Shown here: piece after piece, positions 1,446 to 19,794 of the stretch
Position numbering within the stretch: the stretch's first letter is position 1
How the letters are laid out: each line of letters starts with the position of its first letter
Assembly (NCBI GenBank): GCA_945952225.1
Contig: CAMFHP010000008.1
Span: 1,798-65,797 of the forward strand
Length of the DNA stretch: 64,000 nucleotides
DNA from: an uncultured Myxococcaceae bacterium
GTDB lineage: Bacteria; Myxococcota_A; Polyangia; Polyangiales; Ga0077539
Direction of reading: 5' to 3'
Notes under the pieces: model-generated
Databases searched by the model: none
What the model was told of the DNA's origin: nothing
The model's input: the letters and a program-made list of their open reading frames with translations, nothing else
Translations under genes and position numbers: made by a program

Positions 1446-1484
1446 CGGTGGGTCGCGGTGTGGAGGGGTCGAACGGTCGCGCGC

Positions 1485-2459: not shown

Positions 2460-2567
2460 CGGAGTGGTGGCGCCCACTACCACAGGCCCGCGCGACGTGG
2501 TGCGACGATCCCGAGAGATTCTTCGCGGGATGCGTTCTGGCAACCCGCGGCCGTCGCGCGCGAGGTC

Positions 2568-4478
2568 TCAGGCGTTGGACCAGAAGTGCTTCGCGCCCCG
2601 CGCCACGCGCTCGCGCGTGAGGTCGAAGTCGTAGCGGCGCGACGCGCGCGGATCGCCCGAATAGGCTTCGAGGCAGCGGTCGATGACCGCGAGCGCCGTG
2701 TCGCGCAGGTGGGGATGGTGGTGCACCACGAAGGTGATCGCCTCGCCGAGCGCGCGCACCTCGTCGTAGGCGCCCTCGTGCGTGGCGTTCCATTCGAGCT
2801 GCGCGAGGAGCAGCGGGAGCGCGTCGGCGCCGAGGTGGTGGGCGAGCATCTTCGAAGCCATGCGGGTGGTCGGGTGCGGGTACATCCGTCCGCCGCGCTC
2901 CCGGCCCGCGAGCGCGCGCGCCACGAGGTCGAGCGTGAGGGCCTCGGTGGACCATGCGTCGGGGATTCCCCCCTCCGGCCACCCCTGCGCAGCGAGGGTC
3001 TCGAAATGCGCGCGCAGAAAGAGCCGCTCTCCTTCGCCCTCGAAGGGAATCGCGTTCGTGTACGGCCCGCTCGGAATGCCCATGCCGCGGTCGTACGAAT
3101 CGCCGAGGGGATGGGACACATCGCACGGCAACACGTCGTTCGCGCGCATCCACGCGAGCACCGCGCGCACCGTCGCGAGCGTGGCGGCCCCTGCGTCCTG
3201 CGCCCACCCGCCGTCGGTGCCCGCCGAGCCCCAGTGCCACCCGTGCGTGCGCAGCTCGTAGCGGTCGAGCAGGTCTTGCGTGAGCCCTTCGGAGACGCGC
3301 CCCGCGAGCCCCGACGGCGTGGCCGAGCGCAGCATCGAGAGGGCGACGCGCAGGTCCTTCGGGTGCCGCTCGAAGGCCCCGAGCTGAAGGCCGATGTGCA
3401 GGCCGCGCAACGACTCGTCGACCACCGCGAGGCGTTCGAGCGCGAGCCGACGAAACGCGATGGGCGATGCATCGAGTCCCCGCGCGTGGCCGACGCCCTT
3501 CACGAGATCGACGGCGCACTCGCGGTGCCACGGCACGAACCATCGCTGCGCGCCGCGCACGCCGAGAAGGCCCGGACGGCGCGTAGGCAGACGCGGCGTG
3601 TGTCCCTTGTAGACCGCGGCTTCGGGCTCGGGCCCCGGGTGCGCGCCCCACGCCGAGACCTCGTAGCGCGTGACCGCGCCCGTCGCGAGGTCGTGCGCTT
3701 CGACGGTGTCGTTCGTGGGCTGCGCGAGGATCGTCGCGCCGTCGACCGCGGGCACGCAGAGGCTCACCACCTCGTGCACGGCGACCTCGCCCGCGCGGGT
3801 GATCGAGACGCAGCGCACGGTGTCGTTCGAACGGTCGCGCACGAGCACCCACGCGGTGTCTCCCGCGAGGGCGAGGCCGACGTCGGCGCCGGGGTGCACG
3901 GCGAGCGGGAGCTTCCACCACACGGCGTCGTGGGCCGCGTCGACGCCGAGGGAGCCCGCGTAGACGTGGTCGTGGATGCGCGCGAGAAAGTGTCCGTCGC
4001 ACGTGGTCGTGAGGTCGAACGACTCGGGCAGCCATCCCGCGCGGTCGTCGGCCTGCGGACCCACGGTGCGCGCATCGAGGGCGCGCGCCGCCGAGAGGTC
4101 GACCTGACGCTCGTGGCGCGCCGAGTCTCCATCGATCGTCGACACATCGAGCCCGTGCGCGGCGACGGTCACGAGGTGCTCCGCGTCGCCGAGGGTGACC
4201 AGTTGCTGCGGGTGCGCGCCGCGCGAGAGCTTCGCGCGAAGTCCGAGCGCGGGCAGGCCGAGGAGCGACGTGCCCGGGTTGCCGTAGGCGCCCGTGTGCG
4301 TGCGTCCCCACACGAGCAGCGCGCCCTGCCGCGCGTCGATCGAGACGACGCCTGTGGGCGCCGAGACCTTCGCCTGGTGCTTCACCTTCACGGCCTTGCC
4401 GAGCGCGAAGCGGGTGATGCCGAACACGTCGGCGACGAAGAGCGAGGAACCGTCGGGCGCGAAGAGCAGATGGGCCAT
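2568..4478 (-). CDS. hypothetical protein (636 aa)
   Basis: Start chosen at 'MAHLLFAPDGSSLFVADVFG' (ATG 4476-4478); the 119 codons upstream in the ORF track are Arg/Ala junk. The N-terminal half is beta-rich and the C-terminal half helical. No motif recognised. Confidence 0.65.
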   Translation of the reverse strand: MAHLLFAPDGSSLFVADVFGITRFALGKAVKVKHQAKVSAPTGVVSIDARQGALLVWGRTHTGAYGNPGTSLLGLPALGLRAKLSRGAHPQQLVTLGDAEHLVTVAAHGLDVSTIDGDSARHERQVDLSAARALDARTVGPQADDRAGWLPESFDLTTTCDGHFLARIHDHVYAGSLGVDAAHDAVWWKLPLAVHPGADVGLALAGDTAWVLVRDRSNDTVRCVSITRAGEVAVHEVVSLCVPAVDGATILAQPTNDTVEAHDLATGAVTRYEVSAWGAHPGPEPEAAVYKGHTPRLPTRRPGLLGVRGAQRWFVPWHRECAVDLVKGVGHARGLDASPIAFRRLALERLAVVDESLRGLHIGLQLGAFERHPKDLRVALSMLRSATPSGLAGRVSEGLTQDLLDRYELRTHGWHWGSAGTDGGWAQDAGAATLATVRAVLAWMRANDVLPCDVSHPLGDSYDRGMGIPSGPYTNAIPFEGEGERLFLRAHFETLAAQGWPEGGIPDAWSTEALTLDLVARALAGRERGGRMYPHPTTRMASKMLAHHLGADALPLLLAQLEWNATHEGAYDEVRALGEAITFVVHHHPHLRDTALAVIDRCLEAYSGDPRASRRYDFDLTRERVARGAKHFWSNA

Positions 4479-4673
4479 GGCGGCGCGGACTCTATCGGTT
4501 CGCGCGGCGTCGGTCAGCGCGTTGTGCGACGCGCGTCGGGCCCCGTCGCCGATGCGAGGCGGACGCACCGCAGACGTTTGCACGGTGTTGCGTGAACGCC
4601 GCCGCAGCGCGACGCATCGGGAGCGGTCACGGGGCGCCCACGAGGGCACCGCCGCGCCGAGGGAACCCACACC

Positions 4674-5105
4674 ATGCAAGCGCTCCAGGGCGCGCGCCGC
4701 GTTGCGGTCGCGTGCGGCGTCGTCGTCTGCCTGCTCACCGGCTGCTACAGCGGCACCGCCGCGTACGTGCCACGTCACGCGCGCCTCGGCGTCGACGGCG
4801 CCCGCGCGATGCGCGCCATCGAAGACACGGTGCACGCCGCGGGTCTCACCGTGGTCTCACGCGACGCGCGACGCGGCTCCCTCGTCGCCCTGAGCACCAC
4901 CACGGCGCTCGGCGACATGGCGACGCGCGAGCGCTGGGTCTTCGGCCTCCGCGGCGACGACGTGCACGTCGAGATGCACCCCGAGACGCGCGATGCCAAC
5001 GCGTGGGTGCCCCTGCGCCTCGTGTGCGACTGCTACCAGTACGCCCGCGAGCGCGAGATGCTCCGGGCGATCCGCGCGCGACTCATCGACGCGCGACGGG
5101 GATGA
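4674..5105 (+). CDS. lipoprotein, unknown function
   Basis: Signal peptide with lipobox 'LLTGC' and a GAGGGA RBS about 10 nt upstream. It is the first gene of the co-directional flotillin cluster. Confidence 0.7.
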   Translation: MQALQGARRVAVACGVVVCLLTGCYSGTAAYVPRHARLGVDGARAMRAIEDTVHAAGLTVVSRDARRGSLVALSTTTALGDMATRERWVFGLRGDDVHVEMHPETRDANAWVPLRLVCDCYQYAREREMLRAIRARLIDARRG

Positions 5106-5145
5106 CCCGCAGCCACGGCGTGCGTGCTAGGGTCCGCGCCCTCCG

Positions 5146-5943
5146 ATGGGCGGCGCCATTCACATCTTCGTGACCCTGCCGACGCTGATCTACACGGTGC
5201 TGCTCGGGGCCACGCTGCTCTACTGGCTCTCGGTGGTGCTCGGTGCGCTCGACCTCGACGCGCTCGGCGGCGACGGCGCAGACCACGGCGGCGACGCGCA
5301 CCACCACGACGCGGGCGATGCGTCGGGTGACGGCGATGGCGACGCCGACGGCGACGGCGATCATCCCGGTCACGGCGACCTGCTCTCGGCCCTCGGCGGC
5401 ATGTCGATCCGCAAGGTGCCGCTCACGATCTCGCTGAGCTTCACGGTGATCTTCGGCTGGCTGCTCAGCGCGCTCACGGTGCTCTTCGTCGGCGACGTCG
5501 CGCGGCGTGCGGGCGTGCCCTCCGCGGCCTTCAACGCGGTGACCTTCACGCTCACGCTGCTGGTCGCGCTGCGCCTCGCGGGTCTCGCGGTGAGGCCCAT
5601 CGCGAAGGTCTTCGAAGCGCGCGGCGCCACGAAGAAGGAGCAGCTCACGGGACGCCTCGCCGAGGTCTCGACCGCGCGGCTCGATGCGCGCTTCGGTCAG
5701 GTGCTCGTCGCCGATGGCGGCGCGGGGCTGCTCATCGACGCGCGCTGGGAGGGCGACCGCACGCTCCGTCGCGGCGAGCGTGTGGTGATCACGCACTGGG
5801 ACGCCGAGCGCGCCGTCGCCCACGTCGAACCCCTCGATGCGAGCCCGCGTGTGCGCGCGGTCGACGAGGGCGAGCGCGCGGAGGCAGAGCTTTCGCATTC
5901 GGCTGAAAAACAGACCAATCGACGCGGATCCGATTCGGGGTAA
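5146..5943 (+). CDS. YqiJ/NfeD-like OB-fold membrane protein
   Basis: N-terminal TM, then a His/Asp/Gly-rich loop ('GDAHHHDAGDASGDGDGDADGDGDHPGHGD'), more TM helices and a C-terminal OB-like segment ('GRLAEVSTARLDARFGQVLVADGGAGLLIDAR...GERVVITHWD'). This architecture, and the position directly upstream of a flotillin gene, match E. coli yqiJ. Confidence 0.75.
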   Translation: MGGAIHIFVTLPTLIYTVLLGATLLYWLSVVLGALDLDALGGDGADHGGDAHHHDAGDASGDGDGDADGDGDHPGHGDLLSALGGMSIRKVPLTISLSFTVIFGWLLSALTVLFVGDVARRAGVPSAAFNAVTFTLTLLVALRLAGLAVRPIAKVFEARGATKKEQLTGRLAEVSTARLDARFGQVLVADGGAGLLIDARWEGDRTLRRGERVVITHWDAERAVAHVEPLDASPRVRAVDEGERAEAELSHSAEKQTNRRGSDSG

Positions 5944-6036
5944 CCCGCCGATTCTCGTCCGTACGTGCCCGCCGCGTCTGGTACGGTCCGCGCCGCCGTC
6001 GCGCCGGGGTGCCGACGTAGCCAAAGGGAGCGTTGG

Positions 6037-7986
6037 ATGGACAGCCTCATTCCTGTTGTGATCGCGGCGAGCGCGCTCGGCGTGCTCGTGCTCGGCATCA
6101 TGGCCCTGCTCGCACGGTTCTACCGACAGGTCGATCAGGGCAAGGCGCTGATCGTCAACACGCTGAAGGCCGAGCCCCTCGTGACCTTCACGGGCACCGT
6201 GGTCTACCCCATCGTGCATCGCGCCGAGGTGATGGACATCTCGGTGAAGACCATCATGATCGACCGCCGCGGCAAGGAGGGGTTGATCTGCAAGGACAAC
6301 ATCCGCGGCGACATCAAGGTCACGTTCTTCGTGCGGGTGAACAAGACCCAGGAGGACGTGCTCAAGGTCGCGCAGTCGATCGGGTGTGCGCGCGCGAGTG
6401 ATCCCGCGACGATCGAGGGGCTCTTCGAAGCGAAGTTCGCCGAGGCGCTCAAGACCGTGGGCAAGCGGCTCAACTTCGAAGACCTCTACAAGGAACGCGA
6501 CCACTTCAAGGACGCGATCATCGAGGTCATCGGCAAGGACCTGAACGGCTTCGTGATGGACGACTGCGCCATCGACTATCTGGAGCAGACGCCCGTCGAG
6601 TCGCTCGACAAGGACAACATCATGGACGCGGAGGGCATTCGGAAGATCACCGAGCTCACCGTGATCCAGAACGTGAAGACCAACGACCTGCGCCAGAAGG
6701 AGCGCATGGAGGTCGGGGCCCAGAACCTCTCGGCCGACGAGGCGCTCTTTCGCTTCGAGCAGAAGCGCTCCGAGGCCGAGGCGCGGAAGAACAAAGAGGT
6801 CGCCGTCGCGCAGGCCCGAGAGCAGAACGAGGCCGTGCGCGTCGCCAACGAGGAGCACAAGCGCACCGCCCTCGCGCAGGAGAAGAACGCCGAGGAGACC
6901 CTCGTGGCCCAGCAGGCCCGCGAGCGCGCCGTGCTCGTCGCCCAGAAGAACAAGGAGCGCGAGATCGCCGTGGAGCAGGAGCGCGTCGAGCGCGCCCGTC
7001 AGCTCGAAGCGGCCAACCGCGAGAACGACGTGACCGCGCTCAAGATCACCCGCGAGGCCGAGATCGAGCGTCAGCGCCGCGAGATCGCCGACGTGGTGCG
7101 CGCGCGCATCGTGGTCGAGAAGTCCGTGGCCGAAGAGGAGGAGCGCATCAAGGACGTGCGCGTCCTCGCCGATGCGAACCGTCAGAAGGACGCGAAGCGC
7201 ATCGCCGCCGAGGCCGACGCCGCGCAGAACCTCGTGAAGCAGGTGAAGGCCGCCGAGGCCGCGGAAGAGGTCGCGAAGTTTCAGGCGCGTCAGCAGCTCG
7301 TGGCCGCCGAGGCCGCGCTCGAAGCCGCGGAGAAGCAGAGCCGCGCGAAGGTGCGTCTCGCCGAGGGCGTGCAGGCCGAAGCCGCCGCCGCGGGCCTCGC
7401 CGACGTGCGGGTGCGCGAGGCCGCCGCCGCCGCGGTCGAGAAGCAGGGCCTCGTCGATGCGCGGGTGATGCTCGAGAAGATGCAGGCCGAGGCGCAGGGC
7501 GCCGAGCAGCAGGGCGTGGCGCGTGCGAAGGTGCGCGAGGCCGAGGCGCGCGCGCTGGAGCTGCAGGGCGCCGCCGAGGCGTCGGCGATTCGCGCGAAGA
7601 TGAGCGCCGAGGCCGCGGGCATCGCCGAGAAGGCCGAGTCGATGAAGGCCCTCGACGCCGTGAGCCGCGAGCACGAGGAGTTCCGCCTGCGACTGGAGCA
7701 GAGCAAGGTCATCGCGCTGGAGTCGATCCGCGCGAAGAAGGACGTGGCCGGCGTGCAGGCCGAGGTGCTCCGCGCGGCCTTCGAGCACGCGAAGATCAAC
7801 ATCGTGGGCGGCGACGGGCAGTTCTTCGAGCGCTTCATGCGCGCGGTGACGCTCGGTCAGTCCATCGACGGCGCCATCGACCAGAGCGACACATTGCGCT
7901 CGCTGCTCACGCAGATCGCCGAGACCGAGGCCGCGCCCGCCGAGACGGCCGAGACCGCGGAAACCTCCCCCCGCCGCGCGCGCTGA
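6037..7986 (+). CDS. flotillin / SPFH (band 7) family protein
   Basis: AAAGGGAG RBS before ATG 6037. N-terminal TM, an SPFH core ('QGKALIVNT...VVYPIVHRAEVMDISVKTIMIDRRGKEGLICKDNIRGDIKVTFFVRV') and a ~350-aa Ala/Glu/Arg/Lys coiled-coil flotillin tail. Confidence 0.9.
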   Translation: MDSLIPVVIAASALGVLVLGIMALLARFYRQVDQGKALIVNTLKAEPLVTFTGTVVYPIVHRAEVMDISVKTIMIDRRGKEGLICKDNIRGDIKVTFFVRVNKTQEDVLKVAQSIGCARASDPATIEGLFEAKFAEALKTVGKRLNFEDLYKERDHFKDAIIEVIGKDLNGFVMDDCAIDYLEQTPVESLDKDNIMDAEGIRKITELTVIQNVKTNDLRQKERMEVGAQNLSADEALFRFEQKRSEAEARKNKEVAVAQAREQNEAVRVANEEHKRTALAQEKNAEETLVAQQARERAVLVAQKNKEREIAVEQERVERARQLEAANRENDVTALKITREAEIERQRREIADVVRARIVVEKSVAEEEERIKDVRVLADANRQKDAKRIAAEADAAQNLVKQVKAAEAAEEVAKFQARQQLVAAEAALEAAEKQSRAKVRLAEGVQAEAAAAGLADVRVREAAAAAVEKQGLVDARVMLEKMQAEAQGAEQQGVARAKVREAEARALELQGAAEASAIRAKMSAEAAGIAEKAESMKALDAVSREHEEFRLRLEQSKVIALESIRAKKDVAGVQAEVLRAAFEHAKINIVGGDGQFFERFMRAVTLGQSIDGAIDQSDTLRSLLTQIAETEAAPAETAETAETSPRRAR

Positions 7987-8038
7987 ATCCCCGTCCTCTC
8001 CACGTCCATTCCCCCGCACCTGACCGGGAGCGAGAGCC

Positions 8039-11000
8039 ATGTCCGACGCCGCTGAGAACACGGCGGCCTCCGAGCTCGGAGGCAGCTACGAGGTGATCCG
8101 CCGAAGGCTCATCGAGCAGGCGACCGAGCTCGGTCGGCGCGCCGAGCAGCTCAACGCGCGCCGCATCGAGGTGTTCGGCGGCAGCGACCTGAGCCTCACG
8201 GCCACGGAGCGCGTGCGCACGGAGAACAACTGCCTCCCGCGCGACATCGTCGCCGTGGGGCCGCGGCTCCTCGTGGCCTACGACGTGTTCGTGGGCATGA
8301 AGAGCGAGGTCACCGTGGCCGACGTGTTCGGCCTCCACCGCGTCGTGCGCAACGAGCAGGGCGCACCCACGCTCGAACCGCTGCCCCTCGACGACGGCGG
8401 GTTTCTCAGCGACGAGCGCTTCGTCCGCGAGTTCGGCGACCTGTTCAAGTACGTGCGCGAGGCGCGGATCCTCCAGCTCCGTCGCACCGATCACCGCCTG
8501 CTCGCGGTGTTCTCCACGGGCCCCGGCGCGCGCGATCGGAGGGTGTTCCGCTGGAGCATCGACGCCGCGGGACGCATCACGTACCTCGACGCGCGCGGCG
8601 AAGAGGACCACGTGCGCCCCCGCGCCCACGACTTCACGTGGAAGACCGCCACGCGCGAGAACCACGTGCAGGGCCGCCATCCCCACGTGTCGATCTTCGA
8701 CGAGGTCTTCGTCGAGACCATCGGCGGCGACCTCACCATCAAGGTCGAGAACAACACGGCATCGGGCCAGGGCATCTACGCCGAGCCCGTCGACGACGCG
8801 AACCAGTCGCTCGACGACGCGACGATCGGCTACGCGCGGCTCGGCGCGCTGATCCTGCTGCGCGTGAAGCCCTACCGCGAGAGCGTCACGCGGCATTTTC
8901 TCTACAACCCGCGGCGTCGTCAGGTGCTGCGCATCGACGCGTTGGAGCAGGCCTGCCTCGCGCTGCCCGAAGACCACGGCGCGATCTTCTCGACGGGCTA
9001 CTACCTCGTCACCGGCGAGCACAAGCTCTTCGACGCCGAGGGCGGGCCCATGACCTTCGAGCGCGTGCTCCGCGCGCCCAACGGCGAGGACGTGCTCTAC
9101 GTCTTCTTTCGCGAGAGCGACGGTCGCTACCTGCTCTTTCCGTACAACCTCATTCGCAAAGAGGTCGCGACGCCGATCACCTGCCACGGGTACTCGCTCT
9201 TCGACGACGGTGCGCTCATCGTCTTTCGTGCGGCGCCCGGTGAAGAGCCTCGCAGGGTGCATCCGATGCAGGTGTGGCGGACGCCCTTCGTCTCCGCGGA
9301 GGTGGCCGCGAGCGCGCCGGTGGCAGGGTCGTTCCTGGGGCGCGTGGGCAACCCCGACCTGGTGCGCGGCATCTCCGAGGCGCTCTCGCTGCGACGACTC
9401 GCGCTCGGCGAGAACCCCGATCGGCAGACCTGGGAAGACCTCATCGCCGCGTCGGGACGCATGGTCGATGCGTTCCACTGGCTCGGCCACGCGGAGTGCT
9501 TCGACCTGCTGGGTGCGCTCAAGCAGGTGCGCGCCGTCGCCGAGCAGATCGTCGACGAGTACGAGAAGGTCGTCGCGATCCGCGCGCGCGCCGCCGAGGC
9601 CCTCGCGAAGGCCGAGGGCGATCAGAAGGAGCTGCTCCGCGCGCCCGCCGATGCGTCGGAGAGTGCCGACGCGTTCATGCAGGCGCTCACGGCGCTGCGT
9701 CGTCAGCGGGGTGCCCTCGGAACGCTCCGCGAGATGCGCGCGATGAACCTCACGCGCGTCGAGGCGTTGGAGTCCGAGGTCGACGCGCGCTTCACCGAGA
9801 CGAGCCTCGCGGCGGCGACGTTCCTGTGCCGCGACGACGCGCTGCGCCCGCTCGTCGAGAAGGTCGACGCCGCGGTCGCGCAGGCCGAGAAGGTCGCGCG
9901 CTCCATCGAGCTCGCCCCCGCACAGGCCGAGGTCGACCGCGTGTACGAGGGCACCACCGTGCTCTCCGAGACCGTCGCGGGACTCCAGGTCGACGACCCC
10001 ACGGTGCGCACGCGCATCCTCGACGCGATCGGCGAGGTCTTCGGCCGCGTGAACCGCGCCCGCGCCGTGCTCCAGGGCCGCGCGAAGGAGCTCCGCGGCC
10101 ACGAGCTCCGCGCCGAGTTCGCGTCGCAGTCGAAGCTCCTCGCGCAGGCCATCCAGAGCGCGCTCGCGGTGGCCGACACGCCCGAGCGCTGCGACGCATC
10201 CCTCTCGCGCCTCGTGGTGCAGCTCGAAGCCCTCGAAGGCCGCTTCGGCGAGCTCGACGAGTTCGCCCCCGAGCTCGCATCGCGGCGCGAGGAGCTCCAC
10301 GACGCCTTCGGCGCGCGGCGCCAGACCCTCGTCGACGAGCGGCAGAAGCGCGCGGCGAACCTCATGGCCGCGGCGGAGCGCATCCTCCAGGGTGTCGAAC
10401 GCCGCGTGCGCGCGATCCCCTCGCCCGAGGAGCTTCACGCGTACTTCGCGGGCGATCCGATGGTGGCGCGGGCCCGCGAGCTCGTGGCGCAGCTCCGCGC
10501 GCTCGGCGACGCGGTGAAGGCCGACGAGATCGAGGGACGCATCAAGTCCGCGCGTCAGGAGGGCACGCGCGCGCTCCGCGACCGCAGCGATCTGTTCGAC
10601 GGCGCCGACAACGTCATCCGCTTCGGCCAGCACCGCTTCTTCGTCAACACGCAGCCCCTCGAACTCGCGATCGTTCCCCGTGACGGCGCCCTCGCGCTGC
10701 ACCTCACGGGCACGGATTTCTACGAGCCCCTCGAAGACCCGCGCCTCGACGAGGCCCGCGATCTCTGGGCGCAGACGCTCCCCGGCGAGTGCGAGACCGT
10801 GTACCGCGCGGAGTTCCTCGCGGCGTGTGTGCTCCGCGACGCCGAGCGCAACGAGCGCGGCCTCTCGATCGAGACGCTCCGTCAGGAGTCGCTCAAGTCC
10901 GACGGGCTCCTCGCGCTCGTGCGAACGTGGTCCGCGGAGCGCCACGACGAGGGCTACGAGCGCGGCGTGCACGACGTCGATGCTGCGGCCATTCTCGGCG

Positions 11001-13738
11001 CGCTGCTTCCCGTGCTCACCGCGGCGGGCACGCTCCGTCACCAGGGCGACGCGCGCTCCCTCGGAGTGCTCCACGCGGCGACGCTCGACGAGCCCGCCCG
11101 CACCCTCCTCGCGCGGCGTGCCCGCTCGGCCCGCAGGCTCCGCGCGCACATCGGATCGAGCGCCGCGCGCGACGAGCTGGTCGACGAGCTCGTGCCCGCG
11201 CTCGACGCCTCCGCGAAGCTCTGGCGCACCGCCTCTCACGAAGGTCTTCGCCGTCGCGCCGCGCAGTACATCGTCGACGAGCTCGGCGCCGACAGCGCGC
11301 GCTGGGTGCTCTCGTCCGAGGCCACCGCGCTGCGCCTCGCGTTCCTCAAGGTGCTCACGGAGCAGGGCACGCGGTCGGCCTTCGAAGACGACCTGCGCGC
11401 GCTGGAGAAGCTCCCCGCCGAGCGCCTCGCCCTCGCCACGCGCTGGCTCGAAGCCTTCGCGCAGAAGGCGCCCGAGCACACGCGCGCGGTCGCCGAGTGT
11501 GCGGCCTCGATGGTGGTCGACCGACGCATCGAGCGAGAGCCCTCCACGGTGTCGCTCGACGTGAAGATCGAGGGACTCTTCGGTCAGCACCCGCGCGTGC
11601 AGAACCGCACGCTCGCGCTGCGGCTCGATGAGTTTCTCGCGCGCACCGACGAGATGATCGACGTGCGCCTGCCGCGATGGCGCGCGTACCGAAAGGCCCG
11701 CGCCGAGGTGGCCGAACGCGAGCGCCGTCGACTGCGCCTCGATGAGTTCACCGCGCGCGTGCTCACGAGCTTCGTGCGCAACGGACTGATCGACGAGGTG
11801 TACCTCCCGCTCGTGGGGCAGAACCTCGCGAAGCAGCTCGGCGCCGCGGGCGATGGCAAGCGCACCGACCTCATGGGCCTGCTGCTCCTCGTGTCGCCGC
11901 CGGGCTACGGCAAGACCACGCTGATGGAGTACGTCGCGAGTCGGCTGGGGCTCGTGTTCGTGAAGGTGAACGGCCCGTCGCTGGGACACGCCGTGGTGAG
12001 CCTCGACCCCTCGGAGGCGCCCAACGCCACCGCGCGCCAGGAGGTCGAGAAGATCAACCTGGCCTTCGAGATGGGCAACAACGTGATGCTCTACCTCGAC
12101 GACATCCAACACACGAACGCGGAGCTGCTCCAGAAGTTCATCTCGCTCTGCGACGGGTCGCGTCGCATCGAGGGCGTGTGGCGCGGCCGCACGCGCACCT
12201 ACGACCTTCGCGGCAAGCGCTTCTGCATCGTGATGGCGGGCAATCCGTACACCGAGTCGGGCGCGCGCTTTCGCATCCCCGACATGCTCGCGAACCGCGC
12301 GGACACCTACAACCTCGGCGACATTCTCGGCGGCCGCGACGACGTGTTCGCGCGCTCGTACGTCGAGAACGCGCTCACCTCGAACGCCACGCTCGCGCCC
12401 CTCGCGGGTCGTGACCCCGCAGACCTCCGCAAGCTCCTTCGCATCGCCGAGGGTGAGAGCCTCGCGCCCTCGGAGCTCGCGCACCCGTACAGCGCCGCCG
12501 AGGTGGGAGAGATCACCGCGGTGCTCCGGGGCATGCTCCGCGCGCGCAACACGCTGCTCGCGGTGAACGCCGAGTACATCCGCAGCGCCTCGCAGGAAGA
12601 TGCGTTCCGCACCGAGCCGCCCTTCAAGCTCCAGGGCAGCTACCGCAACATGAACAAGGTCGCCGAGAAGATCGTCGCGGCGCACACCGACGACGAGGTC
12701 GAGGCCCTCGTGAGCGACCACTACACCAGCGAGAGCCAGACGCTCACGACGGGCGCAGAGCAGAACCTCCTGAAGCTCGCCGAGCTCCGCGGACGACTCA
12801 CCGACGCGCAGCGCGCCCGCTGGGATGCGATCAAGAAGGAATACCTCCGTCAGAAACGCGTCGGCGGCCGCGACGACGACCCCGTGGCGCGCGTCACGGG
12901 CACGCTCTCGACGCTCGGCGAGGAGCTCGAACGGCTGCGCACCGACCTCGTGAAGGCCGCGTCTTCTCGCGAGGGAGAGCGCACCGTGGCCGCGCAGCTC
13001 ACGCCCCACCTCGACGCGCTCGCGAAGGCCCTCGCCTCGGTGTCGCGCCCCACGCTCGACGTGAGGCTCCCGACGCCCGATCCCCGCGCGCAGGCCGACG
13101 CGCTCGCGCTCGCGCTGCGCAACGCCTCGGCCGACCTCGCGCCCGTGGCCCGCGCCGCACAGCACGGCCTCGGCACGCTCCCCGCGCTCCTCGAGTCGCT
13201 CGTGTCGGTGCTCACCCGCATGGAGCAGCGCCTCGCCGACGCGCCCGTCCCCGTGGCCACGGTCGCCCCCGCGTTGCCCGCGCAGCCCGCCTCCGTGGCC
13301 CGTGCGTCGGTTCCCTCGCCGGCCCCCTCCCCGACCCCTGCGCCGCGCGCGGCGACGCCCGCAAGGCCCCTCTCCGCGCTGCCCGACACCATGGCCGCCG
13401 TGCCCGGTGCGATGCGCTTCGAAGCCACCCTCGACGCGGCGAGCGCCTCGCATCTCTGGGTGCCCCGCGGCGCCGACACCGATGTGCTCCGCGACGGCGG
13501 GGTCTACGTGCAGACCCATCGCGCGCTCCCGCCGCTTGGCGGGCTCGTCTCGCTCGTGATCGACCTCGCGGGTGCGGGACGCTTCGAGGTGCCCGCGCAG
13601 GTGATGTTCGTCCGCGAGGCCGCCCTCGATGTGCCCGATCCGGGCTTCGGCGCGCGGCTCACGCAGCTCCCGCCGGAGCTCGAACGTGCGCTCCGTCGCT
13701 ACGTGATCGAACGTGACCCCGTGCAGGTGCGACGGTGA
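8039..13738 (+). CDS. giant (1,899 aa) single-AAA+ ATPase with C-terminal PilZ-like domain; function unknown
   Basis: Walker A 'SPPGYGKTT' (11894-11920) and Walker B 'VMLYLDD' (12083-12103). 'VMAGNPYTESGARFRIPDMLANRAD' resembles the MoxR/AAA_5-type sensor region. About 1,280 aa of non-ATPase sequence (beta-rich, then long helical) precede the ATPase. A Pro/Ala linker leads to a PilZ-like tail (13412-13735). Confidence 0.85.
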   Translation: MSDAAENTAASELGGSYEVIRRRLIEQATELGRRAEQLNARRIEVFGGSDLSLTATERVRTENNCLPRDIVAVGPRLLVAYDVFVGMKSEVTVADVFGLHRVVRNEQGAPTLEPLPLDDGGFLSDERFVREFGDLFKYVREARILQLRRTDHRLLAVFSTGPGARDRRVFRWSIDAAGRITYLDARGEEDHVRPRAHDFTWKTATRENHVQGRHPHVSIFDEVFVETIGGDLTIKVENNTASGQGIYAEPVDDANQSLDDATIGYARLGALILLRVKPYRESVTRHFLYNPRRRQVLRIDALEQACLALPEDHGAIFSTGYYLVTGEHKLFDAEGGPMTFERVLRAPNGEDVLYVFFRESDGRYLLFPYNLIRKEVATPITCHGYSLFDDGALIVFRAAPGEEPRRVHPMQVWRTPFVSAEVAASAPVAGSFLGRVGNPDLVRGISEALSLRRLALGENPDRQTWEDLIAASGRMVDAFHWLGHAECFDLLGALKQVRAVAEQIVDEYEKVVAIRARAAEALAKAEGDQKELLRAPADASESADAFMQALTALRRQRGALGTLREMRAMNLTRVEALESEVDARFTETSLAAATFLCRDDALRPLVEKVDAAVAQAEKVARSIELAPAQAEVDRVYEGTTVLSETVAGLQVDDPTVRTRILDAIGEVFGRVNRARAVLQGRAKELRGHELRAEFASQSKLLAQAIQSALAVADTPERCDASLSRLVVQLEALEGRFGELDEFAPELASRREELHDAFGARRQTLVDERQKRAANLMAAAERILQGVERRVRAIPSPEELHAYFAGDPMVARARELVAQLRALGDAVKADEIEGRIKSARQEGTRALRDRSDLFDGADNVIRFGQHRFFVNTQPLELAIVPRDGALALHLTGTDFYEPLEDPRLDEARDLWAQTLPGECETVYRAEFLAACVLRDAERNERGLSIETLRQESLKSDGLLALVRTWSAERHDEGYERGVHDVDAAAILGALLPVLTAAGTLRHQGDARSLGVLHAATLDEPARTLLARRARSARRLRAHIGSSAARDELVDELVPALDASAKLWRTASHEGLRRRAAQYIVDELGADSARWVLSSEATALRLAFLKVLTEQGTRSAFEDDLRALEKLPAERLALATRWLEAFAQKAPEHTRAVAECAASMVVDRRIEREPSTVSLDVKIEGLFGQHPRVQNRTLALRLDEFLARTDEMIDVRLPRWRAYRKARAEVAERERRRLRLDEFTARVLTSFVRNGLIDEVYLPLVGQNLAKQLGAAGDGKRTDLMGLLLLVSPPGYGKTTLMEYVASRLGLVFVKVNGPSLGHAVVSLDPSEAPNATARQEVEKINLAFEMGNNVMLYLDDIQHTNAELLQKFISLCDGSRRIEGVWRGRTRTYDLRGKRFCIVMAGNPYTESGARFRIPDMLANRADTYNLGDILGGRDDVFARSYVENALTSNATLAPLAGRDPADLRKLLRIAEGESLAPSELAHPYSAAEVGEITAVLRGMLRARNTLLAVNAEYIRSASQEDAFRTEPPFKLQGSYRNMNKVAEKIVAAHTDDEVEALVSDHYTSESQTLTTGAEQNLLKLAELRGRLTDAQRARWDAIKKEYLRQKRVGGRDDDPVARVTGTLSTLGEELERLRTDLVKAASSREGERTVAAQLTPHLDALAKALASVSRPTLDVRLPTPDPRAQADALALALRNASADLAPVARAAQHGLGTLPALLESLVSVLTRMEQRLADAPVPVATVAPALPAQPASVARASVPSPAPSPTPAPRAATPARPLSALPDTMAAVPGAMRFEATLDAASASHLWVPRGADTDVLRDGGVYVQTHRALPPLGGLVSLVIDLAGAGRFEVPAQVMFVREAALDVPDPGFGARLTQLPPELERALRRYVIERDPVQVRR

Positions 13739-14511
13739 GCGCAGCCCGTCTCGTCACGGTCGCTGTCGTGCTGGTGGCGTGCGCGGCGCGTCCTGCGTCG
13801 GTGCTCCCCGACGTCTCGCACACCGAGCTCACGTCGCGCGCCGTGCAGGTCACGCCCGATCTCACGGTGCGTCCGCTGGCGCCCGGCGTGTTGCGCCACA
13901 CCTCGTGGCGCGTGCTGCCCGACGTGGGGCGCTTTCCCTCGAACGGCCTTGTTCTCCTGGGCCCGCATGAGGCCATCGTGGTCGACACCGCGTGGGGTGC
14001 GGAGCTCACGGAGGCGCTCTTCACCCACATCGAGCGCGACCTGCACCGACGCATCACGCACCTCGTGGTGACGCACTCGCACGACGACCGCATCGGCGGC
14101 ATTCGCGAGGCGCTGCGTCGTCACGTCGCCGTGCACGCGCTCACCCTCACCGCCACGCGTGCGACGGCCGAAGGGCTCCCGCCACCCACCGACCCCTTCG
14201 AACGCGAGACCGCCGTCGACGCCGATGGAATGCGCGTGGAGGTCTTCTTCCCCGGCGCCGCCCATGCCCCCGACAACGTGGTCGTGTGGGTCCCCTCGCA
14301 GCGCATCCTCTTCGGCACGTGCATGGTGCGCTCGGCCGACGCGCGCTCCCTCGGCAACCTCGCCGACGCGTCCGTCGCCACGTGGGCTGCATCGGTGCGC
14401 GCGGTGATGGCCCGCTATCCGTCACCCGCCATCGTCGTGCCGGGCCACGGCGAACCCGGCGACGCCTCGCTCCTCACGCACACGCTCGACCTCGTGGCCG
14501 TGGGACGCTGA
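13735..14511 (+). CDS. subclass B1 metallo-beta-lactamase, lipoprotein
   Basis: The GTG start overlaps the upstream TGA (GTGA). Lipobox 'VLVAC'. All six B1 zinc ligands are present: 'THSHDDRIGG' (H116/H118/D120), 'PGAAHAPDN' (H196), 'FGTCMV' (C221), 'VVPGHG' (H263). 'SLGNLADA' closely resembles the NDM/VIM region. Confidence 0.85.
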   Translation: MSAARLVTVAVVLVACAARPASVLPDVSHTELTSRAVQVTPDLTVRPLAPGVLRHTSWRVLPDVGRFPSNGLVLLGPHEAIVVDTAWGAELTEALFTHIERDLHRRITHLVVTHSHDDRIGGIREALRRHVAVHALTLTATRATAEGLPPPTDPFERETAVDADGMRVEVFFPGAAHAPDNVVVWVPSQRILFGTCMVRSADARSLGNLADASVATWAASVRAVMARYPSPAIVVPGHGEPGDASLLTHTLDLVAVGR

Positions 14512-14515
14512 CCCG

Positions 14516-15073
14516 TCACCCGCCGCAACGCGCGAGGCACACGCCGCTGCAGCATCGCATTCCGCCGCAGCTCACGCCGCACGCGCCGCAGTTCGCGGTG
14601 TTCGCCTGCGTGTCGACGCACGCCCCGTTGCAGAGCTGCCGCGCGCCCTCGCAACCGCACGCGCCGCTGCGACACACGAGGCCCGACTCGCAGCGGTTCA
14701 AGCACCGACCGCAGTTGGAGCTCGACTCCGTGAGGTCGACCTCACACCCGTCGCTCGCGCGGCCGTTGCAGTCGGCCCATCCCTGCTCGCACTCGCACGC
14801 GCCCGCGTTGCAGACCTGGTGGTCGCCGCACGCGCAGACCCGCGCGTCGCTCCCCGTGTCGACCGACGCATCGCGGCCCGTGTCGGGCGCGCTGTCACGC
14901 GAGACCACGTCGGGCGTCGACACGTCGGGCGCGGGCGCGTCCATCGGGGCCATCGCGTCGGGCACGGAGAGATCCGTGCGATCGAAGTCGAGCGCGACCG
15001 TGCACCCGCCGAGCGCGTGCGCCACGACCGTCACCACTCCCCACCGGGACCACAGGCTGCGCACCGTCGCCAT
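14516..15073 (-). CDS. Cys-rich lipoprotein
   Basis: Start chosen at 'MATVRSLW'. Lipobox 'ALGGC', an Asp/Pro/Ala spacer, then repeated 'C.C....C..G.C.C' and 'NCG.CG..C' motifs typical of myxobacterial Cys-rich repeats. Confidence 0.65.
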   Translation of the reverse strand: MATVRSLWSRWGVVTVVAHALGGCTVALDFDRTDLSVPDAMAPMDAPAPDVSTPDVVSRDSAPDTGRDASVDTGSDARVCACGDHQVCNAGACECEQGWADCNGRASDGCEVDLTESSSNCGRCLNRCESGLVCRSGACGCEGARQLCNGACVDTQANTANCGACGVSCGGMRCCSGVCLARCGG

Positions 15074-15229
15074 GAGCCGTCCTCCGTCGACGCCCGCACC
15101 GGCAGACGCACCCGCCAAGGTACCGGATCGCGCGCGCCTGCAAAGCGGCACCTTTGCACACGCGAAGCGCGCAACGTTCTCACACCCGCGACGTGGCGCG
15201 GCGTGGCCGTTTCGCCGTGCGCCGCACGA

Positions 15230-15664
15230 TCACCAGGCCGACACGCCCATGGCCTCGGCAATCCGCGCAGCGTCGTCGCGCGACACCTCGAAGTGCCCGC
15301 GTCGCGCGAGCATTCCCCACCCTGCGTCGCGCGTGAACGAGAGCGCCGCACGCAGCGCCGCGAGCGGAACCTCCCTCGCCTCCGCGCACCAGCGCACGTC
15401 GCGACGAAAGGGCGTGAACCCGCCGCCCATGTCGACCTGCACCACGGGTCCGTCGCCGACGCGACCGAGGGCCGTGAACGCCTGCAGCGCGTCGCCGCCG
15501 TTCATCTCCGTGCGCGGCGAGTAGACGATGAAGCCGTCGCCCGCGGCCATGCGCACGAGCGGCGCGCGCTTGCCGTGGCACACCTGCGTGAAGCCGCCCG
15601 CCACTCCGCGCATCACGTGACTGCGCGAGATCACCCCGATCCAGAACCGCGTCGTGTCGTTCAT
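15230..15664 (-). CDS. EVE (PUA-like) domain protein
   Basis: 144 aa. 'FWIGVISRSHV...GFTQVCHGKRAPLVRMAAGDGFIVYSP' matches the EVE/UPF0310 N-terminal pattern. Confidence 0.75.
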   Translation of the reverse strand: MNDTTRFWIGVISRSHVMRGVAGGFTQVCHGKRAPLVRMAAGDGFIVYSPRTEMNGGDALQAFTALGRVGDGPVVQVDMGGGFTPFRRDVRWCAEAREVPLAALRAALSFTRDAGWGMLARRGHFEVSRDDAARIAEAMGVSAW

Positions 15665-15712
15665 GCGCCGACCGTAGCGTCCGCGCGCTGACAGCCGACT
15701 GTCAGGGTTGTG

Positions 15713-16201
15713 TCAGCCTTTCGGCGCGCCCTGTCGTTCGAGCACGGCGAGGATCTTGTCGAGGCGATCGGCGATGCGCCGCTGCGTCTCCTGCGCGTCG
15801 CGGGCCTCGGCCTCGCGCTCGGCGGCCGGCGCGTCGAAGAGCTTCGCGGCGAGCGAGGGCCCCACGGTGTTGAGCCACGACGCGATGACCTTGCCGCGCT
15901 CGGACCGCGCGAAGGTGTCGGCGTAGCCCACGGAGAGGCTCGTGGTCACGAACACCAGCGCGTCGGCGAAGGTGCGCACCTTGGGGTTCACGCCGCGCTC
16001 GCACTGCCAGAAGAGGTACGCGGCCGAGAGCACGGTGACCGCCGTCGCGTCGAGGGGATCGCGCGCCACGAGCTCGCGCGCCTGCTTCTTCACCGCGGGC
16101 CACGGCCCCCCCGCGTCGGGGTCGCCGAGGGCGTTCATCGCGAGGCCCGCGAGGGCGGTGAGGGCCTTGAGGTTCACGGCGCGACGGGGCGTGGTGCTCA
16201 T
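15713..16201 (-). CDS. small 2-TM ion-channel-like protein (K+ channel pore with non-canonical filter)
   Basis: TM, then pore helix and filter-like 'FVTTSLSVGYADTF', then TM and a charged helical tail. Starts 12 nt after the upstream hydroxylase gene stop. Confidence 0.55.
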   Translation of the reverse strand: MSTTPRRAVNLKALTALAGLAMNALGDPDAGGPWPAVKKQARELVARDPLDATAVTVLSAAYLFWQCERGVNPKVRTFADALVFVTTSLSVGYADTFARSERGKVIASWLNTVGPSLAAKLFDAPAAEREAEARDAQETQRRIADRLDKILAVLERQGAPKG

Positions 16202-16213
16202 CGGGCGCCGAGC

Positions 16214-17356
16214 CTACCGCGCGGCGTACGCGGCGCCAGCGACGATCGAGAGCGCGAACGAGACCCACCAGAGGCCCTGCGAGACCGACGCCCACGCGCG
16301 CGCTTCGAGGAGCCCGCCCACGTTCGCGAGTCCCCACACCGAGAGCGTCGCGGCCGCGAGGTTCACCGCATCGGCCCCCACAGGGCGTTGCAGCACGACC
16401 ACCGAGAGCAGCATCGCGAGCGCGAACACCACCACCGCGTGGAGCGTCGTCGCGCGCGCAGCGGTCACGTCGTAGCGGGGTGCGCCGCGGCGCGCGTCGG
16501 CCATCGCGTTGAGGTCTTCGGCGGGCCATCCGGGCGGCTGCCATCCGGGGCCGCGCACGAGCACCTGGGCGGCGGTCGCGAGGCCCTCGGCGCGGGCCAT
16601 CTTGGCGAGGAGCTTTGCGCCGTACTGGAGGTGCACCCACACGGGGTTCCAGCTCGCGACGGGCTCGATGGTGCCGTAGGTGGGCGACTGCGATTCGGCG
16701 GTGAAGGTGCCGAAGAGGCGATCCCAGACGATGAAGACGCCCGCGTAGTTGCGATCGAGGTAGGCGGGGTCGACGCCGTGGTGCACGCGGTGATGCGACG
16801 GGGTGTTGAAGACTGCTTCGAGGGGCGCGGGCAGGCGGTCGATGAGCTTCGTGTGGATCCAGAACTGGTAGACGATGACCACGCCGTAGGCCGACGCGAA
16901 CACCGACGGCGGCACGCCCATCAGCGCGAGCGGAAGCTGAAACCACAGGGAGAACAGGGGCTGCCACGCGTCCTGACGGAGCGCGACGGAGAGGTTGTAG
17001 TCCTCGCTCTGGTGGTGCACGACGTGGCTGAACCAGCCCACCGCCGACTCGTGGCTCCAGCGATGGAACCAGTAGTAGAAGAAGTCCGCGGCGACGAAGG
17101 CCACGAGCCACGCGACGACGGGATGCGCCGCGAACCAGTCGGTGGCCCGCGCATGGTCGTAGAGCCAGTGGTAGGGCGCTTCGAGGGGCACCGTGAGCAG
17201 CGCCACGAGGAGCTGCTGGTACGCGCCGCACGCGAGGTTCGTGAGCGCGTCGTTCAGGCGGTAGAGACCGAGGTTTCTGCGCCGATCCCACCACCACTCG
17301 GCGCCCATGAAGACGAAGTACATCGGCACCGCGAGCACGATGGGGTCGACCGCCAT
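16214..17356 (-). CDS. fatty-acid hydroxylase superfamily protein (sterol desaturase family; alkylglycerol-monooxygenase-like)
   Basis: Histidine boxes 'HRWSHE', 'HVVHHQSEDYNLSVALRQ' and 'HHRVHHG'. Polytopic membrane protein with an extra C-terminal TM region. Confidence 0.85.
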   Translation of the reverse strand: MAVDPIVLAVPMYFVFMGAEWWWDRRRNLGLYRLNDALTNLACGAYQQLLVALLTVPLEAPYHWLYDHARATDWFAAHPVVAWLVAFVAADFFYYWFHRWSHESAVGWFSHVVHHQSEDYNLSVALRQDAWQPLFSLWFQLPLALMGVPPSVFASAYGVVIVYQFWIHTKLIDRLPAPLEAVFNTPSHHRVHHGVDPAYLDRNYAGVFIVWDRLFGTFTAESQSPTYGTIEPVASWNPVWVHLQYGAKLLAKMARAEGLATAAQVLVRGPGWQPPGWPAEDLNAMADARRGAPRYDVTAARATTLHAVVVFALAMLLSVVVLQRPVGADAVNLAAATLSVWGLANVGGLLEARAWASVSQGLWWVSFALSIVAGAAYAAR

Positions 17357-17404
17357 GGGCGCGGATCATCGCACCCGACACGTGCCCCGCGGTAGCCTCG
17401 CGCA

Positions 17405-17695
17405 ATGGCACGCACCCCACTCACCGACGACGCACTCCGCGAGGCGCTCGCCGCGCTCCCGCGATGGGAGGGCGACGGACGCTCGATCCGCGCGACGTAC
17501 CACTTCTCGACCTACGAAGCGGGCGTCGCCTTCGCGATGCAATGCGCCCTCGTCGCGCAGCGCATGGACCACCACCCCGAGCTGCTCATCGGCTGGCAGC
17601 ACGTGACCGTGACCTTCACCACCCACGACGCCGGCGGCGTCACCGCGCGCGACCTCGACGGAGCCCGCGCCGTCGACGCCATCGCCGCGGCCTGA
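17405..17695 (+). CDS. phhB: pterin-4-alpha-carbinolamine dehydratase
   Basis: 96 aa. 'L..W.......I...Y.F..Y..GVAFAMQCALVAQRMDHHPELLIGWQHVTVTFTTH' is the PCD/DCoH signature. Confidence 0.85.
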   Translation: MARTPLTDDALREALAALPRWEGDGRSIRATYHFSTYEAGVAFAMQCALVAQRMDHHPELLIGWQHVTVTFTTHDAGGVTARDLDGARAVDAIAAA

Positions 17696-17716
17696 ACCGA
17701 CCGCCCGTCGCAGCGC

Positions 17717-19684: not shown

Positions 19685-19794
19685 CGGGCGCGCGAGGATA
19701 CCCAACGTGTCCCGCGCGGCGAACGTGGGACGCGCGCGCCGTGTGGGTTGAACGAAACCGCGAAGCCGTGGTAGTCGCTCGCCCCCGAATCTAT

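Follow-up and report, generated by a model that had tools for sequence, protein, structure and literature searches.

A giant AAA+ ATPase gene linked to flotillin-like and YqiJ-like genes in an uncultured myxobacterium and across bacterial phyla

Why is the gene for a giant AAA+ ATPase found directly behind genes for a flotillin-like scaffold and a YqiJ-like membrane protein, and do these genes belong together? The question arises from a 64,000-nucleotide (nt) stretch of DNA of about 72% GC, here called the window, from an uncultured Myxococcaceae bacterium (assembly GCA_945952225.1, contig CAMFHP010000008.1, positions 1,798 to 65,797). Five open reading frames (ORFs) follow one another on its plus strand, and an initial annotation had read them as a candidate uncharacterised membrane-remodelling system. 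When rechecked on the sequence, the five ORFs stood as described there, with gaps of 40, 93 and 52 nt between the first four and a GTGA overlap between the last two, in which the start codon GTG (13735-13737) lies on the stop codon TGA (13736-13738). The genes are:

4674 to 5105, plus strand: predicted lipoprotein of 143 amino acids (aa) with a lipobox LLTG/C, from its translation; a local accessory gene
5146 to 5943, plus strand: YqiJ/YuaF-like (DUF1449, NfeD-type) membrane protein, from a profile match to Escherichia coli YqiJ, homologue names and synteny
6037 to 7986, plus strand: flotillin/YqiK-like scaffold protein, from a profile match to E. coli YqiK, Band_7 in homologues and synteny
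8039 to 13738, plus strand: predicted cytoplasmic AAA+ ATPase of 1,899 aa, from Pfam DUF3686, DUF7902 and AAA/AAA_5; database name 'DNA repair ATPase'
13735 to 14511, plus strand: subclass B1 metallo-beta-lactamase lipoprotein, from NF033088; a local passenger

We surveyed one genome per GTDB species for the ATPase motifs SPPGYGKTT and MAGNPYTE, which gave at least 585 loci. The census is made up of the 80 with the highest scores, which come from the Actinomycetota (28), Myxococcota (25), Gammaproteobacteria (22), Planctomycetota (3) and Acidobacteriota (2). Each was translated in six frames and searched with profiles of the three families (flotillin-like, YqiJ-like and ATPase) to which the window's proteins belong, and 74 of the 80 were informative, with more than 3.2 kb of upstream DNA. 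A flotillin-like gene lies on the same strand within 500 nt upstream of the ATPase gene in 72 of the 74 informative loci (97%). In 69 of them (93%) a YqiJ-like gene is also encoded within 500 nt upstream of the flotillin-like gene, and in three more it is found at 640-1,580 nt. The order on the one strand is YqiJ-like, flotillin-like and giant ATPase, with median intergenic gaps of 7 to 141 nt by phylum. Linkage of 97% across five phyla is incompatible with chance position; the three genes form a real and widespread module. The close tie of the ATPase to a YqiJ-like gene and to a flotillin-like gene of its own, first proposed for the window, is thus a property of the family, and synteny with SPFH and YqiJ genes is enriched among its homologues.

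Both exceptions in the census are myxobacterial. The flotillin-like gene is 6.4 kb upstream in Myxococcales 68-20 (L002), and there is none within 10 kb in a Labilithrix metagenome-assembled genome (MAG; L021). One locus labelled 'uncultured Clostridia bacterium' (L013, CAZQBW010000056.1) codes for the full three-gene module with an ATPase 53% identical to the myxobacterial query, and is probably a mis-binned contig.

The ATPase family is large. At least 4,177 members are present in a database clustered at 90%, and 916 representatives remain at 50% clustering, mostly 1,600-1,900 aa long and with identity down to 28%. A tblastn search of plasmid records adds homologues from Deinococcus, Hymenobacter (Bacteroidota), Proteus, Vibrio, Photobacterium and Halomonas, and others are encoded on Streptomyces plasmids. 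With the Deinococcota and Bacteroidota added to the five census phyla, the family reaches at least seven phyla.

The outer two genes of the window do not share this conservation. As no homologue of either the lipoprotein or the metallo-beta-lactamase was found in the 80 related loci, both are taken to be local passengers. The lipoprotein is encoded elsewhere only in a 99%-identical contig (L085). In a 73%-identical MAG locus (L084) genes other than a metallo-beta-lactamase follow the ATPase gene. One functional system of five genes, as originally envisaged, was rejected on these grounds; the core is three genes, and the other two accompany it only here and in near-identical relatives. The 143-aa lipoprotein belongs to no Pfam or NCBIfam family. 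The earlier label of gene 5 as a metallo-beta-lactamase lipoprotein was borne out and can be narrowed to subclass B1, as the protein scores 242.8 bits against NF033088, above the NCBIfam equivalog cutoff of 200. It falls far under the cutoff of every named B1 allele family (199 against 473 for PYX), the nearest being the myxobacterial PYX, COR and MYX, and by sequence could represent a new B1 enzyme from the environment. Its lipoprotein signal is LVAC, and its translational coupling by the GTGA overlap to the ATPase gene was seen in this lineage only.

The five genes most likely begin as a unit at 4674. In the near-identical (99%) ENA contig L085 the gene called next to the lipoprotein on its 5' side runs on the minus strand and corresponds to window positions 2568-4478, which leaves the following region between divergent genes:

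4479 to 4673, no strand assigned: divergent intergenic region, where the promoter of the five-gene unit probably lies, from the minus-strand upstream gene call in L085

No sigma-70-like site was found in 4479-4673 and no plus-strand terminator-like site in 4000-15500; at 72% GC the promoter scan is uninformative and the terminator scan at most weak evidence for the unit. Within the unit, the flotillin-like gene is read from the ATG at 6037, which has a Shine-Dalgarno sequence AAGGGAG 8 nt 5' of it, while the longest ORF opens at 5965. Long overlapping ORFs flank the unit at 1311-4595 (plus) and 2568-4478 (minus) on one side and at 14516-19774 on the other. Pfam found no families in the flanking ORFs 1311-4595 and 14516-19774, and upstream of the unit the gene caller used for L085 prefers a minus-strand product of 636 aa.

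What kind of protein is the giant ATPase? Its N-terminal portion contains:

8126 to 9478, plus strand: DUF3686 beta-propeller, aa 30-480, after a long N-terminal helix at aa 17-46 (Pfam E 3.9e-190; AlphaFold2; Foldseek)
9296 to 10588, plus strand: predicted long helical/coiled-coil region, aa 420-850 (AlphaFold2 secondary structure)
9836 to 10090, plus strand: DUF7902, aa 600-684 (Pfam E 2e-23)
10613 to 11518, plus strand: predicted small beta domain, aa 859-897, then an all-helical domain, aa 920-1160 (AlphaFold2)

By Pfam the window protein has the domain order DUF3686, DUF7902 and a single AAA+ (AAA, E 1.5e-6), identical to that of members from the Gammaproteobacteria and Acidobacteriota. 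The first 1,280 or so residues, in which no domain had been recognised at the outset, thus hold two named families. AlphaFold2, run on aa 1-1200 with an alignment of 38 sequences (mean predicted local distance difference test score, pLDDT, 83), gives a beta-rich domain at aa 52-414, where pLDDT is mostly 80-90, and then about 430 aa of long helices; pLDDT is about 90-95 across aa 920-1200. Foldseek against the PDB matched this portion to the clathrin terminal domain, prolyl oligopeptidase and WD40 beta-propellers, and found propeller-plus-solenoid matches to IFT (IFT-A) and Nup proteins, all with global TM-scores of at most 0.13. The propeller assignment is therefore a generic one, and the modelled resemblance to coat proteins is a hint, a lead and not a result. 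The helical domain at aa 920-1160 was also considered as a degenerate second AAA+ module and rejected, as the model has no beta-sheet or P-loop core there. No protease domain and no transmembrane (TM) segment was found in the ATPase by translation and Pfam. Residues 1-1280 matched no characterised family of soluble function in Pfam or by AlphaFold2 and Foldseek, which leaves a role at the membrane unrefuted.

The database name 'DNA repair ATPase' probably derives from coiled-coil similarity to SMC/SbcC-type proteins. It is probably misleading and has been propagated to thousands of genes. Literature searches on DUF3686 or PF12458 returned no paper mentioning either, and searches for YqiJ with YqiK and AAA+, or for Myxococcus with flotillin and AAA, returned nothing relevant.

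The catalytic portion of the protein includes:

11786 to 12658, plus strand: single AAA+ module, aa about 1250-1540 (Pfam AAA/AAA_5 at aa 1282-1405; AlphaFold2; invariant residues)
11894 to 11920, plus strand: Walker A SPPGYGKTT, aa 1286-1294, with K1292 invariant in 20 diverse homologues
12083 to 12103, plus strand: Walker B VMLYLDD, aa 1349-1355, with Asp-Asp replacing Asp-Glu
12164 to 12205, plus strand: predicted pre-sensor-1 beta-hairpin, aa 1376-1389 (AlphaFold2 strands E176-181 and E184-189, model numbering)
12242 to 12244, plus strand: sensor-1 N1402, invariant in 20 diverse sequences
12296 to 12298, plus strand: conserved Arg R1420, invariant in 20 diverse sequences

Both Walker motifs lie where they had first been placed, and translation, Pfam and AlphaFold2 agree on exactly one AAA+ module. 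The Walker B Asp-Asp (D1354-D1355, 12098-12103) is invariant in 20 homologues with identity down to 33%. Between Walker A and Walker B there is a conserved NGPSLGHxVxSLDPxEAPNATA and not an aromatic pore loop. A second AlphaFold2 model, of aa 1201-1899 (mean pLDDT 78), has one AAA+ alpha/beta core with its lid, a helical extension, a disordered linker and a C-terminal beta-barrel; in neither model is there a second alpha/beta P-loop core. The predicted beta-hairpin would sit between alpha3 and beta4, the pre-sensor-1 position; AAA+ proteins of the classical clade, among them Vps4, Cdc48 and FtsH, have no such hairpin. In Foldseek searches with the module RuvB had the best E-value (2.7e-6) and NorQ and CbbQ2 had target TM-scores of 0.54-0.59, with Cdc48 and FtsH ranked lower and with poorer TM-scores. 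The similarity to RuvB is to the generic AAA+ fold only, at 14-18% identity, and is on a par with that to NorQ, CbbQ, Rubisco activase and HslU. Pfam AAA_5 matches the module at 25.0 bits (cutoff 22), and there are weak RuvB_N matches too.

Like the MoxR proteins NorQ, CbbQ and RavA, which act as remodelling chaperones via a single AAA+ module, the ATPase has an AAA_5 match, one AAA+ module and its top TM-scores (0.54-0.59) with this group. It differs in the additional domains, about 1,250 aa, that precede the module and in having Asp-Asp in place of Asp-Glu in Walker B. The helix-2 insert hairpin of MoxR proteins is not predicted in the model despite a TM-score of 0.58 with NorQ. The operon also has no VWA partner gene, and none was seen among the conserved neighbours by flanking-ORF clustering and neighbour searches.

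The two genes upstream code for the presumed scaffold and its membrane partner. The features recognised in them are:

5638 to 5841, plus strand: putative OB-like (oligonucleotide/oligosaccharide-binding-like) domain of the YqiJ-like protein, aa about 165-232 (sequence homology)
6097 to 6669, plus strand: SPFH/Band-7 domain of the flotillin-like protein, aa about 21-211 (hhalign against YqiK)
7798 to 7827, plus strand: conserved C-terminal motif INIVGGDGQFF of the flotillin-like protein (conservation among homologues)

From its translation the flotillin-like protein appears to consist of a hydrophobic N-terminal TM segment (aa 4-27), the SPFH domain and a predicted coiled coil of about 350 aa that is Glu/Ala/Arg-rich and heptad-like. 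The retrieved passages of Ravi et al. 2024 (PMC11237479) give the flotillin family the same architecture of TM segment, SPFH and coiled coil. As basic residues follow the N-terminal TM segment, the protein is predicted to face the cytoplasm. A 20-sequence profile (A1) aligned with E. coli YqiK by hhalign at a probability of 99.5% (E 6.6e-23, 190 columns), and the SPFH domains of the two proteins are 29% identical. Band_7 (PF01145) was detected in 3 of 20 close homologues (75% identity; best E 1.4e-11), and source records name homologues YqiK or flotillin family. The flotillin label given at first was therefore right, by way of homologues and profiles, although the window protein alone gave nothing in Pfam, NCBIfam and PDB sequence searches. 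Against the PDB, profile A1 reached Flotillin-1 at E 0.09, too weak on its own for an identification.

Similarly, the YqiJ-like label was right, by way of homologues and profile-profile comparison, although Pfam does not see it on the window protein, which had no family match in direct Pfam, NCBIfam or PDB sequence searches. Its profile (A4) aligned with E. coli YqiJ at a probability of 93.2% (E 2.9e-7, 132 columns), with aa 75-217 on YqiJ 50-191. Lysobacter homologues bear the name DUF1449 (E 6e-19), and PF21001 YqiJ_N was found in one homologue. The layout of the 265-aa protein is TM1, a linker, TM2-TM3 and a C-terminal OB-like domain. The linker between TM1 and TM2 (aa 36-80, 5251-5385) is 45 residues of Asp/Gly/His-rich, low-complexity sequence that varies in length among homologues and produces a spurious weak 'TrAA12-like' match in Pfam. 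From its composition this linker could bind metal ions.

The pair has known relatives. In E. coli yqiJ-yqiK and Bacillus subtilis yuaF-floT a homologous NfeD-type and flotillin pair is encoded in the same order as in the window. No ATPase gene is found downstream of E. coli yqiJK, as initially noted; sibD/ibsD follow instead. Unlike YqiK and FloT, the flotillin-like protein of the window falls into a distinct and strongly conserved subfamily, with 660-1245 bits to the profile across phyla.

At its C-terminus the window's ATPase has one further domain:

13412 to 13729, plus strand: PilZ-like beta-barrel, aa about 1792-1897 (TIGR02266 E 4.2e-5; AlphaFold2 pLDDT above 90)

A disordered Pro/Ala-rich linker (aa 1738-1787) joins this barrel to the rest of the protein. 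TIGR02266 scores 23.6 bits, under its cutoff of 68.7, and PF07238 PilZ was matched in several ATPase homologues. In an alignment of 38 homologues the (D/N)xSxxG position reads D-V-(V/L)-R-x-G-G, with Ser replaced by Val or Leu, and the RxxxR motif for cyclic di-GMP is absent upstream of it. The domain is confined to Polyangia-type homologues, with Cystobacter fuscus and some Sorangium copies lacking it. Homologues from outside the myxobacteria align only to about aa 1630-1650 and have no C-terminal Pfam domain. From sequence and model, the PilZ-like barrel is a lineage-specific, degenerate addition to the ATPase.

What else is encoded with the core in other bacteria? Neighbours were identified by flanking-ORF clustering, Pfam and iterative search. 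Genes for DUF2170 (YjfI, CesT/Tir-like) and PspA/IM30 lie directly 5' of the core in 14 of the 22 gammaproteobacterial loci. Seven of the 22 have a rhomboid gene, in six cases immediately 3' of the ATPase gene, and seven have a PLD-type gene 3' of the ATPase gene. None of PspA, DUF2170, rhomboid and PLD was found in the census loci of the other four phyla or anywhere in the 64-kb window.

Plasmid neighbours, inspected in Pseudomonas and Hymenobacter records as annotated in RefSeq, extend this picture. On pQBR103, a megaplasmid of Pseudomonas fluorescens SBW25, one long same-strand cluster (L082, NC_009444.1 85428-101512) codes for PspA, rhomboid, DUF2491, DUF350, DUF1190, a glutathionylspermidine-synthase-like protein, a hypothetical protein, SPFH and a 'DNA repair ATPase', in that order. 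This cluster joins yjf-type PspA/polyamine genes to the YqiJ-like, SPFH and ATPase core. The plasmid of Hymenobacter sp. DG25B (L083, NZ_CP010056.1 126740-137047) encodes a Tir chaperone, PspA, DUF1449, a hypothetical protein and a 'DNA repair ATPase'; we read the gene between DUF1449 and the ATPase, hypothetical in RefSeq, as flotillin-like. A gene for a LexA-family regulator lies divergently upstream of the Hymenobacter cluster. It may be a link in the regulation of the cluster, and the 'DNA repair' label may in part stem from it.

The fuller arrangement has been reported. In the passages retrieved from Ravi et al. 2024 (mSystems 9:e00847-23; preprint 2020; PMC11237479), an operon of CesT/Tir-PspA, YqiJ/YuaF, Band-7/flotillin and a beta-propeller/coiled-coil/AAA+ ATPase is described in silico together with an 'abbreviated' form, the 'related abbreviated operons ... 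more widely distributed'. Its Table S3 includes Dokdonia donghaensis, with a gene order matching that of the census loci and the window, and the same contextual inference of membrane remodelling is drawn in the text. The window shares the three core proteins, their domain architectures and their order with that operon, and is without the PspA, the CesT/Tir chaperone and the PLD of the full form. It is one of the abbreviated operons of Ravi et al. The candidate system of the initial annotation had therefore already been described by comparative genomics, association and hypothesis alike, and is not a new discovery; the window's own value is modest for that reason. Relative to the retrieved passages, the PilZ-like domain, the lipoprotein gene and the B1 metallo-beta-lactamase gene are extras, and those passages give no structure-based AAA+ clade assignment and no quantitative census of the ATPase. 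New here are the quantified census, the pre-sensor-1 and RuvB/MoxR placement, the invariant Asp-Asp Walker B, the PilZ-like extension and the identification of the two passenger genes.

What might the module do? Three known systems offer comparisons. ESCRT-III with Vps4 and archaeal CdvB with CdvC are functional analogies only, in which an AAA+ enzyme is genetically coupled to a membrane-remodelling polymer; the coupled set in the Gammaproteobacteria and Bacteroidota includes PspA, itself a member of the ESCRT-III superfamily. Unlike Vps4, the ATPase is 1,899 aa long, has a propeller, a coiled coil and the predicted pre-sensor-1 hairpin and is without an MIT domain, so that homology is limited to the AAA+ fold. 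In HflK/C-FtsH, too, an AAA+ enzyme works with an SPFH scaffold at the inner membrane. However, FtsH belongs to the classical clade, is anchored in the membrane and has its AAA+ module fused to a protease, and HflK/C have their SPFH domains in the periplasm, whereas the module has a soluble ATPase, no protease and a flotillin-type scaffold predicted to be cytoplasmic. We know of no account of how bacterial flotillin assemblies are built or turned over. According to a 2025 review, no Vps4-like ATPase is known for bacterial PspA/Vipp1, whose assembly must be regulated otherwise (PMC7619361). A functional connection of an SPFH protein to PspA has a precedent in B. subtilis YdjI, which is needed to localise PspA (Scholz et al. 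2021, as cited in PMC11188069 and PMC7619361).

We consider it somewhat probable that the core is a three-gene maintenance module of the cytoplasmic membrane, in which the ATPase remodels or recycles the flotillin scaffold, PspA or both under envelope stress. The YqiJ/NfeD-type protein, the dedicated SPFH scaffold and the giant soluble ATPase are inherited across phyla as one closely spaced, same-strand unit. Oligomers of the flotillin-like protein would form a cap or cage against the inner membrane on its cytoplasmic side, and the YqiJ-like protein would partner them within the membrane. The ATPase may use its propeller and coiled-coil arm to dock on this assembly, on the clients gathered there or on PspA. 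Presumably a hexamer, it would then spend ATP on building, taking apart or recycling the scaffold, PspA polymers or both during envelope stress. The job that Vps4 does for ESCRT-III would in this way be done by an unrelated AAA+ clade with a pre-sensor-1 hairpin, RuvB/MoxR-like. The window has the abbreviated form, in which the ATPase has gained the degenerate PilZ-like domain and the lipoprotein and B1 beta-lactamase genes lie alongside as passengers.

A bolder version of this proposal is tentative and, in our judgement, somewhat doubtful. In it the DUF3686 AAA+ would supply the missing energy for membrane repair by bacterial ESCRT-III and flotillin, as a convergent, non-homologous counterpart of Vps4 in at least seven phyla that docks on flotillin caps in a coat-like manner and recycles flotillin and PspA polymers with a RuvB/MoxR-type ring, with regulatory input through the PilZ-like domain in Polyangia-type myxobacteria. 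The coat-like layout it draws on is the modelled beta-propeller followed by long helical arms, as in clathrin, Nup and IFT proteins.

Several observations weigh against the maintenance module. No PspA was found in the 64-kb window, and the PspA link is for this locus an extrapolation from other phyla. With a predicted pre-sensor-1 hairpin and with RuvB, NorQ and CbbQ as its closest structures, the AAA+ module is placed by the model in the pre-sensor-1 hairpin group, RuvB/MoxR-like, and not in the Vps4/classical clade; Pfam found no MIT domain in the ATPase, whose N-terminus is the propeller. The idea of a Vps4-like partner of the flotillin scaffold thus holds for the genetic association, given a PspA gene directly ahead of the core in 14 of the 22 gammaproteobacterial loci and also on a plasmid from the Bacteroidota, and fails for the clade. 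No canonical aromatic-hydrophobic-Gly pore loop is evident in the sequence between Walker A and Walker B, which makes polypeptide threading uncertain, and the rate of ATP hydrolysis could be unusual, given the Asp-Asp in place of Asp-Glu in Walker B. As the census covers the 80 loci that scored best among at least 585, more distant members may be linked less tightly. Literature searches found no experimental study of the module, in line with the initial annotation, which knew of none.

Three alternatives were weighed, in decreasing likelihood a quality-control machine, a defence system and DNA repair. The first is unlikely: as in HflK/C-FtsH and in NfeD-stomatin pairs, an SPFH cage would confine or position the AAA+ enzyme, which would extract or remodel damaged membrane proteins, and not the scaffold or PspA, and pass them to proteases such as a rhomboid. 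The pairing of SPFH and NfeD-type proteins recovered by hhalign is consistent with this, and HflK/C-FtsH is a precedent for an SPFH cage with an AAA+ enzyme (Ma et al. 2022, as cited in PMC11188069 and PMC7619361). Clients could plausibly be bound by the beta-propeller, and a rhomboid gene is found immediately 3' of the ATPase gene in six gammaproteobacterial loci and upstream within the cluster on pQBR103. However, the ATPase has neither a protease domain nor a TM segment and no evident canonical pore-loop motif, the rhomboid is encoded in just 7 of the 22 gammaproteobacterial loci and in none from other phyla, and the periplasmic SPFH domains of HflK/C do not match a flotillin-type protein predicted to be cytoplasmic.

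Far less probable is a role in conflict or anti-phage defence, with the module sensing membrane perturbation by phage and triggering PLD or rhomboid effectors that cause abortive infection. Defence systems commonly contain large multidomain NTPases. Genes for a PLD-type hydrolase and a rhomboid do lie beside the core in some Gammaproteobacteria, and some copies are plasmid-borne, on megaplasmids (pQBR103 is an example) and on plasmids of Streptomyces, Deinococcus and Hymenobacter. We rate this reading low because PADLOC found nothing significant among the five proteins, only P-loop-level matches at E of about 2e-3, and 50,697 phage records contained no homologue. Moreover, by ORF clustering the flanking genes are conserved among related Nonomuraea loci and among Pseudomonas loci, unlike those of a variable defence island, suggesting stable vertical inheritance. 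No effector-like gene accompanies the core in the loci from myxobacteria, actinobacteria, planctomycetes and acidobacteria, and its association with PspA and polyamine (yjf) genes speaks for housekeeping functions in envelope stress.

That the protein is a true DNA repair ATPase, its place beside a flotillin gene having no functional meaning, is the least probable of all: the NCBI and Pfam labels ('DNA repair ATPase' and 'ATPase involved in DNA repair'), RuvB as the structure with the best Foldseek E-value, weak RuvB_N matches and the divergent LexA-family gene on one Hymenobacter plasmid speak for it, but no nuclease, helicase or DNA-binding domain was detected in the ATPase, the likeness to RuvB is that of the generic AAA+ fold at 14-18% identity, the linkage to a membrane scaffold gene is 97% in five phyla, and literature searches found no paper tying DUF3686 to DNA repair.

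The membrane maintenance reading, with the ATPase acting on the scaffold, on PspA or on both, remains the one we favour. With an almost obligatory link to dedicated flotillin and YqiJ genes and, in two phyla, a further link to PspA, the family is a strong genomic candidate for the ATP-driven partner of PspA and of bacterial flotillin assemblies. The family occurs in tractable hosts, including Pseudomonas (pQBR103), Streptomyces, Myxococcus, Proteus and Vibrio, where the idea is directly testable, and pQBR103 in P. fluorescens SBW25 is a ready experimental system.

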